From the NCBI GenBank assembly GCA_015063545.1, contig SVTX01000002.1, positions 3,672 through 67,671 of the forward strand: 64,000 nucleotides of DNA, in the 5' to 3' direction. The stretch is from Oscillospiraceae bacterium (GTDB lineage Bacteria > Bacillota > Clostridia > Oscillospirales > CAG-272). A program made the translations under genes and the position numbers. This document shows, in pieces, positions 12,240 to 20,579 of this stretch. Each line of letters begins with the position of its first letter. Positions within the stretch are counted from its first letter, which is position 1. The notes beneath the pieces are model-generated. The model saw only the letters and a list, made by a program, of their open reading frames with translations, was not told where the DNA came from and ran no database searches.

Positions 12240-12548
12240 TTATTTAAGCATCTCAAGCACAGCCTCAAGAGGTCTGTAGCCTACTGCCTTGTCAGCAAGC
12301 TTGCCGTCCTTGAGAAGCACGAGTGTGGGGATGCTGTGGATATCGTATGCATTTGCTATCGCGCCTTCCTCGTCAACGTCCACCTTACAAACTACGACGT
12401 CATCTCTTGTATTCGCAATTTCCTCAACTATTGGAGCCATCATCTTACAGGGACCGCACCACGTAGCGTAAAAGTCGATAAGCACGGGCTTTTGGCTGTT
12501 CAATGCTACCTCGTTGAAATTGTTAACGGTTAAATTTATAATTGCCAT
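12240..12548 (-). CDS. trxA: Thioredoxin
   Basis: DFYATWCGPCK and IHSIPTL. ATG 12548 follows AAAGGA. Confidence 0.95.
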   Translation of the reverse strand: MAIINLTVNNFNEVALNSQKPVLIDFYATWCGPCKMMAPIVEEIANTRDDVVVCKVDVDEEGAIANAYDIHSIPTLVLLKDGKLADKAVGYRPLEAVLEMLK

Positions 12549-13924: not shown

Positions 13925-14857
13925 TTATTTCAAAAAGCCGTTAATGATCTCTTCTTCCGCTTGTTTTTCATCAAGACCGAGTGTCATGAGCTTTATAAGC
14001 TGTTCTCCTGCGATCTTTCCTATCGCCGCCTCGTGAATAAGCGACGCTTCAATGTGGTTTGCTTCTATTTCGGGAACAGCCTTAACGCTTGCGCTGTCCA
14101 TTATAATGGCATCGCACTCGGTATGTCCGTTGCATCTGGCATTTCCCTTTATGTTGGATATGAAGAGCTGCTTGGAGTTGTCCTTTGCGACAGAACGGGA
14201 TACAACATGCGTTCCGCATCCTTCTCCGTTGAGTTCGACCTCAAATTCCGTACGGGCATACTGCTCGCCGTGTGTCATGAGCTTTTCATATACAACAAGA
14301 GTTGAATCCTTGTCAAGCACGGCAACAGTTTTTCTATCGGTGGAATCCACTCCCTTAATCTGCGCCGTTTCCATCTCCATGTATGCGCCTTCCGCAAGAT
14401 ATATCTGCGTTGTGGGGTTCATTACGTTTCGTCCGTTACCGTCTCCCTCGCCGTAGTGCTTTTCCACGTACTTTATCTTGGCATTTTTTGCAACGTAAAA
14501 CGTGTGTATTCCGCTATGCTCGCTCATTTCCGTGCCGCAGTTGTGTATTCCGCAACCCGCAACAATGACAACGTCTGCATCCTCGCCGATATAAAAATCG
14601 TTAAATACAGTCTCGGTTATGCCGGTCTCGGAAAGAATTACGGGAATGTGCATGCTTTCATTTTTTGTGCCTGCCGCAATATGAATATCTATTCCGGGCT
14701 TTTCCTTTTTCTTTTCGATCGTGATATTCGCGCTGGACTGCTTTCCAACCAACTCACCGTTTACGCGGAGTGAATACGCGCCGTCGGGCACCTTGTGAAG
14801 CCCTGCTATGTTTTCAAGAAGATCTTTTTCCATCTTGCTGAGTGTTTTCTGTGCCAT
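13925..14857 (-). CDS. sufB: SufB/SufD-family Fe-S scaffold protein (short, SMS-type)
   Basis: GHTECDAII, HEAAIGKI and QLIKLMTLGL.E..AEE.II.GF C-terminal motifs. Confidence 0.85.
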   Translation of the reverse strand: MAQKTLSKMEKDLLENIAGLHKVPDGAYSLRVNGELVGKQSSANITIEKKKEKPGIDIHIAAGTKNESMHIPVILSETGITETVFNDFYIGEDADVVIVAGCGIHNCGTEMSEHSGIHTFYVAKNAKIKYVEKHYGEGDGNGRNVMNPTTQIYLAEGAYMEMETAQIKGVDSTDRKTVAVLDKDSTLVVYEKLMTHGEQYARTEFEVELNGEGCGTHVVSRSVAKDNSKQLFISNIKGNARCNGHTECDAIIMDSASVKAVPEIEANHIEASLIHEAAIGKIAGEQLIKLMTLGLDEKQAEEEIINGFLK

Positions 14858-15588
14858 CAGTCCTCACCTCCCGCTGTATATCTGCATCCTGCGCTTGCAC
14901 TGAGAAGTTCGGGAAGTATCTCTTCTTTCGTGCCGTAAGCAGCTACTTTGCCGTTTGCAATTACCACTATCTTATCAGCTATGTCAAGTATTCTTTCCTG
15001 GTGCGAGATTATAAGTATATTTCCCTGTGTTTTTTCATGCATCTTCTCAAACACTTTGATAAGATTATTAAAGCTCCACAGGTCAATACCCGCCTCAGGC
15101 TCGTCAAACACAGAGAACTTTGTACCGCGCGCGTTTATCATAGCTATCTCTATTCTCTTCAGCTCGCCGCCCGAAAGAGATGCGTTTACCTCACGGTTAA
15201 TGTATTCCTTAGCGCAAAGCCCCACCTCAGAGAGATAAGAACATGCCTCGGATATGGATATCTTCTTGCCCGCCGCAAGAGATATAAGATCTTTAACGGT
15301 AATTCCTTTAAATCTCACAGGTTGCTGGAACGCAAAGGAAATGCCCGCGCGAGAGCGCTCGGTTATGTTCATATTCGTTATATCTACGCCGTCAAGTATG
15401 ATCTGACCGCAGTCGGGAGTAATTATTCCCGCAATAAGCTTTGCAAGCGTTGACTTTCCGCTTCCGTTAGGGCCTGTCACGGCAACAAAACGCTCGTTTA
15501 TGGTCAAGCTTACATCGTCAAGAATACGGTTTTGCTTTCCTGTTTCGGGATCTGTTACCGTATATGACAAATTTTTAATTTCAAGCAT
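14857..15588 (-). CDS. sufC: SufC-like ABC ATPase
   Basis: GPNGSGKST, AFQQP, LSGGELKRIE, FDEPEAGIDL and ISHQ motifs. Overlaps sufB. Confidence 0.85.
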   Translation of the reverse strand: MLEIKNLSYTVTDPETGKQNRILDDVSLTINERFVAVTGPNGSGKSTLAKLIAGIITPDCGQIILDGVDITNMNITERSRAGISFAFQQPVRFKGITVKDLISLAAGKKISISEACSYLSEVGLCAKEYINREVNASLSGGELKRIEIAMINARGTKFSVFDEPEAGIDLWSFNNLIKVFEKMHEKTQGNILIISHQERILDIADKIVVIANGKVAAYGTKEEILPELLSASAGCRYTAGGED

Positions 15589-15712: not shown

Positions 15713-16627
15713 TTATATTTTGGAATTATCAATATATCTGCAAGCGGCAAGTGCGGCCGTAGCGCCGTCTCCGCACGCCGTTGCAATTTGTCTTATGTTC
15801 TTTGTTCTGCAGTCACCTGCCACAAAAAGTCCGTCTGTTCTGGTAATGCAATTTTCATCCGAAACAACATATCCGCGCTCAGAAAGATCAACGAGATTTG
15901 CATATTGTTCGTTTTCGGGAACCTGACCGATAGCCACGAAAATTCCGTCAACGTCAAGTCTTTGCTTTTCTCCTGTGGCAACCTTCTTGATTATTATGCC
16001 GCCAAACTCATCCTCTGCATAAATGCTGTCAACGACTGTACCGGTTATGAATTCAACGTTATTCTTTTTTGCGAGTGAAGAAACAAGTCTTTCTTCACCT
16101 GTCATATAATCAAGATTCTGTACCACGTAGACCTTAGAGCATCCGTCTGACAGCATCATAGCTTCAACCAACGCTGAGTTTCCACCGCCAATTACGGCAA
16201 CTTCCTTGCCGTTGTAGAATGCGCCGTCACAGACTGCGCAAAAGGAAATTCCGTTGCCTATGAATTCTTCCTCCCTATCAAGCCCAAGGTGTCTGTGCTT
16301 GGAGCCGGTAGCAAGGATGACCGTGTGCGAAAGATACTGTCCGTCATCACAGGAAACGTAGAAAATTCCGTTCTCCTGATGGATACCCGTAACCTCTGCC
16401 ATCTCTATTTCCGCGCCCATGGAAAGCGCTTGCTCTACCATTCTTTCGGCAAGCTCATTACCGCTTATCTGTGAAAACGCGGGAAAATTCTCTATTTTGG
16501 GAGAAAAGGTCATCTGTCCGCCAAAGGTTGCTTTTTCAATAACAAGAACACTTTTATCTGCTCTGCGGGCATAGACCGCCGCGGTAAGTCCCGCGGGGCC
16601 TGCGCCTACGATTATTACGTCATACAT
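15713..16627 (-). CDS. trxB: Thioredoxin reductase
   Basis: GAGPAGLTAA, GISFCAVCDG, GGGNSA, FVAIGQ.P and FVAGDC motifs. Confidence 0.92.
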   Translation of the reverse strand: MYDVIIVGAGPAGLTAAVYARRADKSVLVIEKATFGGQMTFSPKIENFPAFSQISGNELAERMVEQALSMGAEIEMAEVTGIHQENGIFYVSCDDGQYLSHTVILATGSKHRHLGLDREEEFIGNGISFCAVCDGAFYNGKEVAVIGGGNSALVEAMMLSDGCSKVYVVQNLDYMTGEERLVSSLAKKNNVEFITGTVVDSIYAEDEFGGIIIKKVATGEKQRLDVDGIFVAIGQVPENEQYANLVDLSERGYVVSDENCITRTDGLFVAGDCRTKNIRQIATACGDGATAALAACRYIDNSKI

Positions 16628-16652: not shown

Positions 16653-19061
16653 TCAGTTGTTCTGAGAATCAATGAATTTCCTGATGTTGGAAAGATTTAC
16701 TGCCTTTTCGACCTCAACACCGTTTACGGTAACAACAAGCGTGGGAGCCTGCTTTATTCCATATTTAGCTACGAGAACTTCATTTTCTTCTGCATAAACC
16801 TTTTCGTATGCAATTCCCGCCTTGTCAAGGAATACGCCTGCCATCTTACAGTTGGGGCACGTCTTTGTAGCAAAGAGATAGATCTTTGTTCCTTCCTCGG
16901 AATCACACGCGCACGCTTCCTCAACAATAGGCATTGCAATAGTTCTTACTCCGCCCGAGCCGATGTTTATTTCGGGATGAAGCTCTGTGGAACGTTCAAT
17001 GTTATATGTGCGTCTTTCCTTGAATTCCTGAGACTTACCGTCATTCCAAGCCTGAACGGGTCTGTAGTAGCCTGTTATTCTGCTGTAAACCTCAGTGGTC
17101 TTTCCGCAGTGAGGACACTTGTATACCTCACCGGAAAGATAACCGTGCTCGGTACAAATGCTGTATGTAGGCGACAGCGTGTAATAAGGCAGTCTGTAGT
17201 TTTCAGCGATCTTACGGATAAGAGTTGCAGCAGCCTTCCAGTTGGGAAGCTTTTCACCGAGGAATGCATGGAATACCGTTCCTGATGTGTAGAGTGTCTG
17301 CATCTCATCCTGAATATCAAGAGCTGCGAAGATATCCTCGGTAAAGCTTACGGGAAGATGAGAAGAGTTCGTATAGTAGGGGCTGTTACCCTTCTCGGTT
17401 GCCGTAATTATATCGGGATACTTCTTAAGGTCATGCTTTGCGAATCTGAAAGAAGTGGATTCAGCAGGTGTTGCCTCAAGGTTGTAAAGGTCGCCGTAAG
17501 CCTCCTGATAGTCGGAAAGTCTCTCTCTCATGTGGTTGAGAACATTCTTGGAGAATTCCTGAGTTTCCTTCTGAGTCATGTCAGCGCGGAGCCACTTTGC
17601 GTTGAGACCTGCCTCGTTCATACCAACAAGACCGATGGTCGAGAAGTGATTATTGAACGTGCCGAGATATCTCTTTGTATAGGGATAAAGTCCCTCGTTA
17701 AGAAGCTTTGTGATAACCGTTCTCTTCATCTTGAGAGAACGCGCGGAGATGTCCATGAGCTTATCAAGTCTCTTGTAGAACTCTTCTTCTGTCTCAGAGA
17801 GATATGCGATTCTGGGCATGTTGATGGTAACTACGCCGACAGAACCCGTGGATTCTCCCGAACCGAAGTAACCGCCAGACTTCTTACGAAGCTCACGGAG
17901 GTCAAGACGGAGACGGCAGCACATAGAACGAACGTCAGAGGGCTCCATATCCGAATTGATGTAGTTGGAGAAATAAGGAGTGCCGTACTTTGCGGTCATT
18001 TCAAAGAGAAGCTTGTTATTCTCTGTCTCAGACCAGTCAAAGTCACGTGTAATGGAATACGTAGGAATAGGATACTGGAATCCACGGCCGTTTGCGTCAC
18101 CCTCGATCATGATCTCGATGAACGCCTTGTTGACCATATCCATTTCAGCCTTACAGTCCTTATACTTGAAGTCCATTTCCTTACCGCCAACTATACAGTT
18201 GAACTCTGCAAGGTCATTCGGAACTGTCCAGTCAAGAGTGATATTCGTAAAGGGAGACTGTGTTCCCCAACGAGAAGGTGTATTTACACCGTAGATAAAG
18301 GACTGAATGCACTGTTTAACTTCTTTATAAGAAAGGTTATCTACCTTAACAAAGGGAGCAAGATATGTATCAAATGAGGAGAATGCCTGAGCGCCTGCCC
18401 ACTCGTTCTGCATGATGCCGAGGAAGTTTACCATCTGGTTGCAGAGTGTGGAAAGGTGTGCCGCGGGAGCAGATGTGATCTTACCTACAACACCGCCGAG
18501 ACCTTCCTGAATGAGCTGTTTGAGGGACCAACCTGCACAGTAGCCCGTGAGCATGGAAAGGTCGTGAATATGTATGTCCGCATTTCTGTGAGCGTTTGCT
18601 ATCTCATCGTCATATACTTCGGAGAGCCAGTAGTTAGCTGTGATCGCTCCGGAGTTTGAAAGAATAAGTCCTCCGACAGAGTAAGTCACAGTAGAGTTTT
18701 CCTTTACTCTCCAGTCAAGCTCCTTGAGGTATCCGTTAACTACCTCTTTATAGTCAAGAGCTGTGCTCTTAAGATTTCTTATCTTCTCTCTCTGACGGCG
18801 ATAAAGAATATATGCCTTTGCAACATCAGCATAGCCCGCCTGAACAAGAACGGATTCTACACTGTCCTGAATATCCTCAACGGTTATAAGTGAATTCTTT
18901 ATCTTGGGCTCAAAGTCCGCGGTTACCTTGAGTGCCAAGAAATCGATAATTTCTTGATTAAACTGCTTTTCCTGCGCCTCAAATGCCATCTTGATAGCAT
19001 CGGCGATCTTACCAATGGTAAAGTCAACGACCTTACCGTCTCTCTTTTGTACCTGATACAT
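16653..19061 (-). CDS. nrdD: Class III anaerobic ribonucleotide reductase with ATP cone and C-terminal glutaredoxin/NrdH-like domain
   Basis: ATP cone VQKRDG, SMCCRL, EATPAES, CTEH..CPHC Zn site, YSRITGYYRPV glycyl-radical motif, then CPNC and IKQAPTL. ATG 19061 follows AAGGAG. Confidence 0.95.
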   Translation of the reverse strand: MYQVQKRDGKVVDFTIGKIADAIKMAFEAQEKQFNQEIIDFLALKVTADFEPKIKNSLITVEDIQDSVESVLVQAGYADVAKAYILYRRQREKIRNLKSTALDYKEVVNGYLKELDWRVKENSTVTYSVGGLILSNSGAITANYWLSEVYDDEIANAHRNADIHIHDLSMLTGYCAGWSLKQLIQEGLGGVVGKITSAPAAHLSTLCNQMVNFLGIMQNEWAGAQAFSSFDTYLAPFVKVDNLSYKEVKQCIQSFIYGVNTPSRWGTQSPFTNITLDWTVPNDLAEFNCIVGGKEMDFKYKDCKAEMDMVNKAFIEIMIEGDANGRGFQYPIPTYSITRDFDWSETENNKLLFEMTAKYGTPYFSNYINSDMEPSDVRSMCCRLRLDLRELRKKSGGYFGSGESTGSVGVVTINMPRIAYLSETEEEFYKRLDKLMDISARSLKMKRTVITKLLNEGLYPYTKRYLGTFNNHFSTIGLVGMNEAGLNAKWLRADMTQKETQEFSKNVLNHMRERLSDYQEAYGDLYNLEATPAESTSFRFAKHDLKKYPDIITATEKGNSPYYTNSSHLPVSFTEDIFAALDIQDEMQTLYTSGTVFHAFLGEKLPNWKAAATLIRKIAENYRLPYYTLSPTYSICTEHGYLSGEVYKCPHCGKTTEVYSRITGYYRPVQAWNDGKSQEFKERRTYNIERSTELHPEINIGSGGVRTIAMPIVEEACACDSEEGTKIYLFATKTCPNCKMAGVFLDKAGIAYEKVYAEENEVLVAKYGIKQAPTLVVTVNGVEVEKAVNLSNIRKFIDSQNN

Positions 19062-19147
19062 AGGTGCTCTCCTTTTCTCTGTTGATTTTATAAAATTTTT
19101 ACTTTCAAAATGTGACAAATTTCGCCGCAAAGTGTCTATAGCGGCAG

Positions 19148-19184
19148 AAATACGGCGCATAGTTACCCCATAGCGCCGTATTTT
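19148..19184 (-). other. Stem-loop at the nrdG terminator / nrdD transcript start
   Basis: aaatacggcgc ... gcgccgtattt. Confidence 0.6.
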
Positions 19185-19185
19185 G

Positions 19186-19214
19186 ATTATACTATATATT
19201 GTGTTGCTTGTCAA
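19186..19214 (-). promoter_or_regulatory. Sigma-A promoter of nrdD
   Basis: Minus strand TTGACA(19214-09)-N17-TATAAT(19191-86). Confidence 0.8.
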
Positions 19215-19268: not shown

Positions 19269-19973
19269 TTATATACCTCTTAATTGTGCATTTGGAACGA
19301 AAGACTTTAACGTGCTAAGAAATTCTCTCATTTCTTCATCCGAAAATGCATCCATACCCCTTCCGATTATGTCGGAGGAGCTGACAAATTTTTGAAGAAA
19401 ATATTTTTCATTACCCGCAAGCCACTCTCCGATGCGAACAAAATCATCCGCCTCATGCAAGGGATCTACGACCGTAGTACGAAATTCAAAATCAATTGCG
19501 CCGGACATCAGAAACGCCGCGCTTTCTTCTATATTTGATATATCGTAACCGTCATCAAGACCGCACGTCAAAGTATATTTTTCACGACTGTTTTTGATAT
19601 CCATAGCTACATAGTCTATAAGCCCCTCATCAACAAGATGCTTAAGAATTTCCGGGCGACTTCCGTTTGTATCAAGCTTTACTGCAAATCCAAGTTTTTT
19701 TACGCTGCGTATAAAGTCTTCAAGTCCCGGCATCAGAGTCGGCTCACCGCCGCTGATACACACACCCTCAAGTATTCCCTGCCTTGTTTTTAAGTATCCT
19801 AAAATTTCTTCCGTCGAATAATACTCTGCCTCATTTGGAGCAAGCACCAAGGAAGCATTATGGCAAAATGGGCATCTGAAATTGCATCCTACCGTAAAAA
19901 GCGTACATGCCACTTTCCCGGGAAAATCCAATAAGGTAAGCTTCTGGATTCCTCCTATAACAAATGTTTTCAT
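19269..19973 (-). CDS. nrdG: Anaerobic RNR-activating radical SAM protein
   Basis: LLDFPGKVACTLFT.GCNFRCPFCHN, ISGGEPTL, VKLDTNGS and EFRTTV motifs. Adjacent to nrdD. Confidence 0.88.
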   Translation of the reverse strand: MKTFVIGGIQKLTLLDFPGKVACTLFTVGCNFRCPFCHNASLVLAPNEAEYYSTEEILGYLKTRQGILEGVCISGGEPTLMPGLEDFIRSVKKLGFAVKLDTNGSRPEILKHLVDEGLIDYVAMDIKNSREKYTLTCGLDDGYDISNIEESAAFLMSGAIDFEFRTTVVDPLHEADDFVRIGEWLAGNEKYFLQKFVSSSDIIGRGMDAFSDEEMREFLSTLKSFVPNAQLRGI

Positions 19974-19985
19974 TTTATCTCCACG

Positions 19986-20579
19986 TCAAATATAATTTCT
20001 TTGTACGGCAATAACTTTTCCCAAAATAAGCAGTTCATCAAAAAACATGGGCTGCATAGAAGGGTTTTCCGGCTGAAGTCTGTAATGACCGTTTTCTCTG
20101 AAAAATCTTTTTACGGTAGCTTCGTCCTCAATGAGAGCCACGACTATTTCTCCGCTTTCGGCATAGCAAGTCTTTTCTGCGATTATTATATCTCCGTCAA
20201 GAATGCCCGCGCCGATCATGCTTTCTCCCTTGACTCGCAACGCAAATAGATTCTCGGAAGCGATATTTCCCGCATATCCTACATAACCTTCTCTATTTTC
20301 TTCTGCAAGTATAGGCTCGCCTGCGGTAATAACCCCCAAAAGAGGAACTGCACAAATCTTAGGCATTTCTCCTACAATTTTGACAGCTCGGCTTTTTCCG
20401 TCTTCTTTGGTTATATATCCAAGAAGATCCAATCTGTTGAGATACATGTGAACTGTAGAGGTGCTCTTATATCCAAGGTCGCGGCAAATATCTCTGACAG
20501 AGGGTGCATATCCGTTTTTCTGCATTGATCTTACTATGTAATCGTATATTTTCTGTTCTTTTGGTTTAAGCTTTTCCAT
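19986..20579 (-). CDS. lexA: SOS repressor LexA
   Basis: PSVRDIC..LG..STSTVH HTH, VPLLG.ITAG.P cleavage site, V.GESM and ATVK catalytic Ser/Lys. Confidence 0.96.
   Translation of the reverse strand: MEKLKPKEQKIYDYIVRSMQKNGYAPSVRDICRDLGYKSTSTVHMYLNRLDLLGYITKEDGKSRAVKIVGEMPKICAVPLLGVITAGEPILAEENREGYVGYAGNIASENLFALRVKGESMIGAGILDGDIIIAEKTCYAESGEIVVALIEDEATVKRFFRENGHYRLQPENPSMQPMFFDELLILGKVIAVQRNYI

Follow-up and report, generated by a model that had tools for sequence, protein, structure and literature searches.

Architecture and distribution of an NrdD-redoxin fusion

The window analyzed here, the whole 64,000-nucleotide stretch of contig SVTX01000002.1 (assembly GCA_015063545.1) from an Oscillospiraceae bacterium, contains on its minus strand an nrdD gene (16653..19061) that encodes an anaerobic, class III ribonucleotide reductase (RNR) fused at its C-terminus to a redoxin domain and carrying, in the linker between the two, a pair of closely spaced cysteines that may serve as an accessory electron relay. 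All features of the window described below lie on the same strand. The open reading frame (ORF) reaches 19214 if a TTG start is taken (16653-19214), and the ATG at 19061 (MYQVQKRDG) is the start that agrees with the homologues; the resulting product of 802 amino acids plus stop is identical to a database protein (P0002) and matches the PRK08270 model with 1133 bits (cut-off 548). An N-terminal ATP-cone (residues 3-92, 18786..19055; Pfam PF03477, 77.5 bits) is followed by the NrdD catalytic core and glycyl-radical domain (residues 121-686, 17004..18701; PF13597, 635.6 bits, cut-off 26.2), and the core can be aligned to the NrdD structures of Thermotoga maritima and Prevotella copri. The glycyl-radical motif R-I-T-G664-Y (residues 661-665, 17067..17081) is invariant in alignment A2, as are all four residues of a Zn-ribbon-type site, Cys636-x2-His639 ... 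Cys649-x2-Cys652 (17106..17156). In this site a histidine replaces the second cysteine of the classical NrdD site, a replacement that is invariant in 58 aligned relatives. Next to nrdD lies nrdG (19269..19973), which encodes the radical SAM activase (TIGR02495 NrdG2, 218.5 bits versus a cut-off of 131). The core match above cut-off, the RxxGY motif, the Zn-ribbon-type cluster and the adjacent nrdG together identify the enzyme as a class III RNR.

Behind the glycyl-radical domain, the chain continues through an acidic, hypervariable linker that is predicted to be disordered and is unalignable between species (residues 689-724, 16890..16997) into a thioredoxin-fold redoxin domain (residues 725-802, 16656..16889). 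A first-pass annotation of this DNA had proposed such a fusion behind the glycyl-radical motif, and the ORF, the domain matches and a fold model bear it out; likewise, the coordinates it gave for a CxC in the linker (16905-13), a CPNC in the redoxin (16848-59) and a CC in the core (17916-21) all match the DNA, and the QAPT that it named is present in the redoxin. The C-terminal domain scores barely above the Pfam cut-offs (Glutaredoxin, 24.5-27.2 versus 22.9 bits; Thioredoxin, 22.7-27.1 versus 23.5 bits). For the last 95 residues, an AlphaFold2 (AF2) model based on 50 homologues is confident over its residues 18-94, with a predicted local distance difference test (pLDDT) score >90, and shows the order strand-helix-strand-helix-strand-strand-helix. 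The domain thus has the CxxC, the cis-Pro loop and the order of elements of a thioredoxin fold, and Foldseek places the model closest to bacterial thioredoxins (TM ~0.67, 22-29% identity). The redox-active CPNC motif (Cys735 and Cys738; residues 735-738, 16848..16859) is invariant in alignments A1, A2 and A3, and in the QAPT cis-Pro motif (Pro773; residues 771-774, 16740..16751) and the residue behind it A772, P773, T774 and L775 are invariant; across all alignments CPNC and the A-P-T cis-Pro loop are essentially invariant, and in a sample of 80 species (see below) 77 have CPNC and the remaining 3 CPKC. Assignment to NrdH or to the classical glutaredoxins was rejected (TIGR02194 NrdH, 23 bits versus 85.75; GlrX_YruB, 27 versus 88.55), as was assignment to a named thioredoxin subfamily (TIGR01068, 27 bits versus a cut-off of 96.8). 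The redoxin is therefore best called a divergent small thioredoxin-like domain outside the named subfamilies.

The fusion is very widespread. With the last 163 residues as query, a word-indexed search returned ~8000 significant matches, the best 120 of which are all proteins of ~800 amino acids with identical architecture. When one genome per prokaryotic species was scanned, at least 590 species genomes were found to encode a relative of the nrdD::redoxin tail; the detailed species counts given here cover the best 80 loci of these. They belong to Oscillospiraceae, Acutalibacteraceae, Ruminococcaceae, Faecalibacterium prausnitzii, Pseudoflavonifractor, Christensenellaceae, Lachnospiraceae, metagenome-assembled genomes of Bacilli, and Lentisphaeria. 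Every relative examined has CPNC and the cis-Pro, and a gene resembling that of thioredoxin reductase (TrxR), hereafter trxB-like, lies directly 3' of nrdD in 74 of the 80 loci, with nrdG located upstream in most of them. Among more distant NrdD::redoxin proteins (P0132, P0143, P0174, P0182 and P0193) there are some of 1040-1600 amino acids, and several of these long proteins carry a C-E-[AS]-C pair just behind the core. Stand-alone redoxins preceded by a leader with CxC, which would imply that the motif travels with the redoxin, were rejected because the cases on long contigs proved to be broken fusions. Such broken fusions adjoin a truncated nrdD in metagenomes, the break being a frameshift (L001), an in-frame stop (L002) or a gap of Ns (L003). 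Database counts of stand-alone redoxins of the nrdD-tail type are thus inflated, since these small 'glutaredoxin' genes are assembly artefacts.

Thiol-type residues in the catalytic core

Alignment to solved NrdD structures (PMC4493059) bears on the likely reductant of the core. Tyr174-Cys175 aligns with Tyr124-Cys125 of T. maritima, the latter being the universally conserved beta-A cysteine; Cys175 (TGY-C-AGW, 18537..18539), invariant in A2, is thus the conserved reducing cysteine and a probable disulfide partner. The finger loop Met380-Cys381-Cys382-Arg383 (17913..17924, with Cys381-Cys382 at 17916-17921), which reads S-M-C381-C382-R-L in full, aligns with 328-SCCR-331 of T. maritima and 288-MGCR-291 of T4. 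Glu529 (YNL-E-ATPAE, 17475..17477), putatively the proton source in class III RNRs of the thiol type, is conserved in orthologues and aligns with Glu495 of T. maritima, whereas the formate-type P. copri NrdD has MGCR and a leucine at the respective positions. SMCCRL is present in every full-length orthologue, and the second finger-loop cysteine and Glu529 are invariant in the fused family. The core therefore bears out the expectation of thiol-type residues, and with its double-Cys finger loop, beta-A cysteine and active-site glutamate it resembles the NrdD2 enzymes. The 'thioredoxin only' clades defined by Burnim et al. 2022 (PMC9669993) are those without a methionine opening the finger-loop motif; here the motif is S-M380-C-C-R-L, which places the window NrdD, by its sequence, in the Met-containing double-Cys majority of class III RNRs. 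In other words, the core carries the thiol-type residues (second finger-loop cysteine and glutamate) yet retains the methionine of formate-type enzymes, and the reductant of this majority was called unresolved by Burnim et al. (PMC9669993).

As read from the alignment, Cys382 is the counterpart of the thiyl-radical cysteine of the T4 MGCR motif. The first-pass annotation had taken the adjacent CC of the finger loop as the disulfide that has to be re-reduced, a reading that has to be replaced: in the NrdD of Neisseria bacilliformis, the turnover disulfide joins one finger-loop cysteine to the beta-A cysteine (PMC9669993), and by analogy the turnover disulfide of the window NrdD is probably Cys381-Cys175.

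The trxB-like gene (15713..16627) begins 25 bases downstream of nrdD and encodes a flavoprotein with a CAVC active site and GGGNSA. At the place of the HRRxxxR NADPH motif (as defined in PMC10880999) it has QNLDYMTGEE, and its TIGR01292 score (325 bits) is below the cut-off of 343; it thus departs from the low-Mr NADPH-thioredoxin reductases (NTRs) in both respects. QNLxx[LF]TGE is common to 60 of the 67 nrdD-linked partners of other species (loci L004-L083), and HRR is retained in the other 7, the F. prausnitzii clade among them. [quoted passage not shown] In the bacterium's own genome (G000; 69 contigs, 92% complete), no TrxR above the TIGR01292 cut-off was found, the candidates being the enzyme linked to nrdD and an AhpF homologue of 556 amino acids (contig C5, L095). 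The same genome encodes one NrdD and two glycyl-radical enzymes resembling pyruvate formate-lyase (PFL; L084 and L085). A class I or class II RNR large-subunit domain was looked for in this 92% complete genome and not found, so that the window NrdD probably supplies all dNTPs of its host. In many strict anaerobes, class III RNRs are the only enzymes that provide dNTPs.

The two PFL-like enzymes suggest that formate may be available in the host, and this bears on an explanation in which the redoxin, with or without the linker pair, acts in activation: it would keep the cysteines of the Zn-ribbon and glycyl-radical domain reduced for NrdG, with formate as the reductant of turnover. In line with such a role, the redoxin is tethered right behind the glycyl-radical domain and the Zn site, the finger-loop methionine of formate-type enzymes is retained next to the two PFL-like enzymes of the genome, and thioredoxin plays a part in activating the class III RNR of E. 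coli (cited in PMC4390871). The invariance of the second finger-loop cysteine and of Glu529, the signature of thiol turnover, argues against it, and for stoichiometric maintenance a co-transcribed reductase, as seen in 74 of 80 species, should hardly be necessary. On balance, a function confined to activation appears unlikely.

Compared with NrdD2, as known from the N. bacilliformis enzyme and the T. maritima structures (4COI and 4U3E), the window NrdD shares the NrdG activase, the double-Cys finger loop, the beta-A cysteine and the glutamate, and also the proposed reductant, a protein dithiol fed by thioredoxin reductase. Unlike NrdD2, it has a tethered redoxin, a reductase gene directly 3' and MCCR instead of SCCR, and about half of its orthologues carry an extra cysteine pair on the tether. 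As far as motifs and synteny can tell, the locus represents an uncharacterised form of thioredoxin-dependent class III RNR that is very widely distributed. A search of the literature, Wei et al. 2014 (PMC4246965) excepted, for a family with a redoxin C-terminal to NrdD, or for shuttle cysteines in class III, gave only one Glutaredoxin:NrdD entry (PMC6187632). The combination of a tethered redoxin with an adjacent reductase is of interest as natural genetic evidence that the Met-containing double-Cys enzymes are run on protein thiols.

The cysteine pair in the linker

The linker pair consists of Cys717-Ala-Cys719 (16905..16913; Cys717, TGC at 16911-16913; Cys719, TGT at 16905-16907) in the context EEA-CAC-DSEE, the surrounding sequence being ...IVEEACACDSEEGT.... 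The pLDDT of the linker is 30-40 in the full-length AF2 model and <50 in the tail model, where the eight residues around the CxC also stay <50. Docking of the tether or the redoxin onto the core from the full-length AF2 model was dropped, the mean pLDDT of that model being 56.5.

To describe the pair across species, a close pair was defined as two cysteines at most 3 residues apart. Among the 80 species-representative loci, 42 have a close pair in the linker (CxC in 25, CxxC in 15 and CC in 2), 10 have one cysteine and 28 have none; the corresponding figures are 46, 16 and 34 for 99 distinct close tails, and 16, 12 and 66 for 96 distant fused representatives (50%-identity clusters). A single CxC is expected by chance in ~2.5% of 36-residue linkers at the cysteine frequency of the core, and at this frequency ~2 of 80 linkers would contain a pair, ~20-fold fewer than the 42 observed. 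Shuffling each linker with its own cysteine count kept gave a mean of 15 pairs and a maximum of 26 in 2000 trials. The number of cysteines per linker is bimodal (none in 28 linkers, one in 10, two in 35, three in 5 and four in 2), as expected if both cysteines act as a unit. The conservation of the CxC on which the first-pass annotation had staked its proposal is thus strongly non-random (42 of 80 versus ~2 expected) and at the same time incomplete, 35-48% of species being without the pair.

Around the pair, little else is fixed. The residue between the two cysteines varies (A, E, V, D, T, G and others), and a glutamate stands directly behind the pair in 53 of 87 cases, which yields a loose E-C-x-C-E motif. 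At either position, the proportions of TGC and TGT match those among the cysteine codons of the core, from which it follows that synonymous turnover has gone on while the cysteines were retained. In 103 cases in which its position was recorded, the pair lies near the redoxin in 83, near the core in 11 and in the middle in 9, and some proteins have two pairs; typically it precedes the first strand of the redoxin by 7.5 +/- 4 residues, and the first CPNC cysteine by a median of 15. These non-homologous positions are easier to reconcile with a dithiol that may sit at any point of a flexible arm than with a structural site in one fixed place.

The same data speak to another explanation, namely that the linker cysteines are without function, having arisen in an acidic linker of low complexity by drift and been passed on from common ancestors. 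Repeated loss of the pair while the fusion stays, and the hypervariability of the rest of the linker, are both in favor of drift. It would hardly produce pairs ~20-fold above expectation, bimodal cysteine counts, clustering beyond all 2000 shuffles, cysteines retained through synonymous codon turnover, and recurrence at non-homologous positions within an E-C-x-C-E context. We therefore consider drift very improbable.

On a tree of 64 full-length cores, parsimony requires at least 15 changes of state between presence and absence of the pair, 8 of them forced by strongly supported branches, a total that is only moderately below the mean of 21.6 obtained with shuffled labels. Even the four-member clade of the window sequence is divided, with two sequences that have the pair and two that are without it. 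Taken together, comparison of these sequences clearly marks the linker pair as favored by selection and kept over long periods, and as dispensable; it has probably been lost repeatedly and re-invented at other positions of the tether. An obligatory relay station through the CxC, which the first-pass annotation would have allowed, is excluded, because whole clades keep the fusion without the pair. The many losses and changes of position also disfavor a geometrically fixed structural or metal site.

Such a site belongs to a second alternative, according to which the pair is functional without relaying electrons to the active site. One possibility is a redox switch or protective partner that, on exposure of the cell to oxidants, would close a disulfide within the pair or with CPNC and thereby park the redoxin; another is a pair of Zn or Fe ligands, possibly shared across the dimer. 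The selection statistics fit these functions as well as they fit a relay; CxC, CxxC and CC are typical metal-ligand or switch motifs, and dispensability is what would be expected of a regulatory add-on. Most pairs, moreover, lie within reach of CPNC, at a median distance of 15 residues. A metal site, in turn, would have to be formed with two cysteines per chain, at variable spacing (CC, CxC or CxxC) and a variable position in the linker, within a segment predicted to be disordered and with no conserved histidine or cysteine partner that tracks the pair. A switch or metal site is thus conceivable, though on present evidence somewhat unlikely.

The explanation that we favor is that the linker pair is an accessory relay dithiol on a flexible arm, to which we would assign a probability of roughly 0.45 from the sequence evidence. 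From the observed anatomy, conservation pattern and synteny we infer every electron-transfer step of the following scheme. The trxB-like flavoprotein (CAVC, no HRRxxxR) would reduce the tethered CPNC, and the CPNC dithiol would regenerate the turnover disulfide Cys175-Cys381. The linker pair Cys717-x-Cys719 (E-C-x-C-E, located in most cases 2-15 residues ahead of the redoxin's first strand) would provide an extra dithiol that works as a mobile relay: reduced by the neighboring CPNC, it could reach the buried active-site disulfide, either of its own or of the partner subunit, more easily than a folded domain could. In lineages without the pair, the folded redoxin could reduce the active site directly.

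Several observations weigh against a relay. First, a relay cannot be required, since 28 of 80 species have no linker cysteine; nor do 66 of the 96 distant fusions, and the cysteines are missing from the F. prausnitzii clade as well as from all five Lentisphaeria. The frequent changes of state on the core tree point in the same direction. Second, no core or redoxin residue covaries with the pair in a convincing way: a scan of their alignment columns gave conservative I/L, Y/F and V/I swaps only (p ~1e-4, uncorrected for multiple tests), which are probably phylogenetic. Third, the NrdD of N. bacilliformis, which is without such a pair, is driven by free thioredoxin, and class III is not known to have tail cysteines (PMC4390871); a folded redoxin may thus reduce the active site directly. 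Fourth, the pair is internal, located between two folded parts, in contrast to the free C-terminal end that bears the pair in classes I and II. Finally, the enzyme may use formate, as suggested by the two PFL-like enzymes in the genome and the retained finger-loop methionine (PMC9669993). Additionally, no compensating sequence feature was found in the lineages without the pair, and no correlation of the pair with the type of reductase (HRR versus QNL..TGE), with linker length or with extra cysteines in the redoxin.

The closest functional parallel to an accessory relay is found in class I and II RNRs, in which a C-terminal cysteine pair takes up electrons from thioredoxin or glutaredoxin and passes them on to the disulfide buried in the active site (PMC4390871; PMC9531940; PMC5704485). 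Similar to that shuttle pair, the linker pair consists of closely spaced cysteines within a C-terminal stretch of the catalytic subunit that is acidic and disordered. The class I/II pair is essentially universal and stands at a free chain end, whereas the linker pair is internal, is present in ~50% of species, mostly as CxC, and is not conserved throughout its enzyme family. A fused reductant also has a precedent in class I: in Facklamia ignava, the Grx of a Grx::ATP-cone::NrdB protein was shown to be the enzyme's own reductant (Rozman Grinberg et al. 2018, PMC6187632). That fusion, recorded in one species, places a glutathione-dependent glutaredoxin (Grx) at the N-terminus of the radical-generating subunit; here, a CPNC domain stands C-terminal to the class III catalytic subunit, is accompanied by a TrxR-like gene and has been retrieved from hundreds of species. 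More distant parallels likewise combine a very closely spaced cysteine pair with a mobile arm. The C-terminal CGC arm of Erv2p and the C-terminal Cys-Cys or Cys-Sec of high-Mr thioredoxin reductases shuttle electrons between a buried redox center and a partner. As these proteins belong to unrelated families, their likeness to the linker pair is one of analogy only.

Tentatively, and with more doubt than attaches to the accessory relay as such, one could go further and see in these sequences a relay of the class I/II style that was assembled convergently in one operon and one polypeptide, running from the TrxR-like protein over CPNC and E-C-x-C-E to Cys175/Cys381, in a large class III family of gut and rumen. 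Reviews hold that class III is without external shuttle cysteines (PMC4390871), a statement on which the tether pair bears directly; should the relay exist, class III RNRs would have in this pair their first 'external' redox-active disulfide, and its repeated loss and re-invention would amount to a natural experiment on when a shuttle pays. The orthologues without the pair provide built-in natural controls for this hypothesis. Since members of this family abound in the guts of humans and ruminants, the Faecalibacterium lineage included, what is at stake is the supply of electrons to DNA synthesis in these bacteria.

Neighboring genes and a possible mobile cassette

Immediately upstream of nrdG lies lexA (19986-20579), an arrangement that recurs in the closest relatives (L002, L004 and L005). 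This adjacency hints that the anaerobic RNR operon may be co-transcribed or under SOS-linked control. On an unverified contig assigned to a phage of human faeces (L096; MT835493.1, 44425-50895), nrdG, an nrdD::redoxin gene whose linker has a CC pair, and a trxB-like gene of atypical kind precede an ORF resembling a tyrosine recombinase; the nrdG-nrdD::redoxin-trxB-like cassette may be mobile. Downstream of the trxB-like gene, the window encodes an ABC ATPase (14857-15588) and a SufB/D-like protein (13925-14857), and a canonical TrxA (about 12243-12542) is encoded ~3.2 kb further down the same strand.

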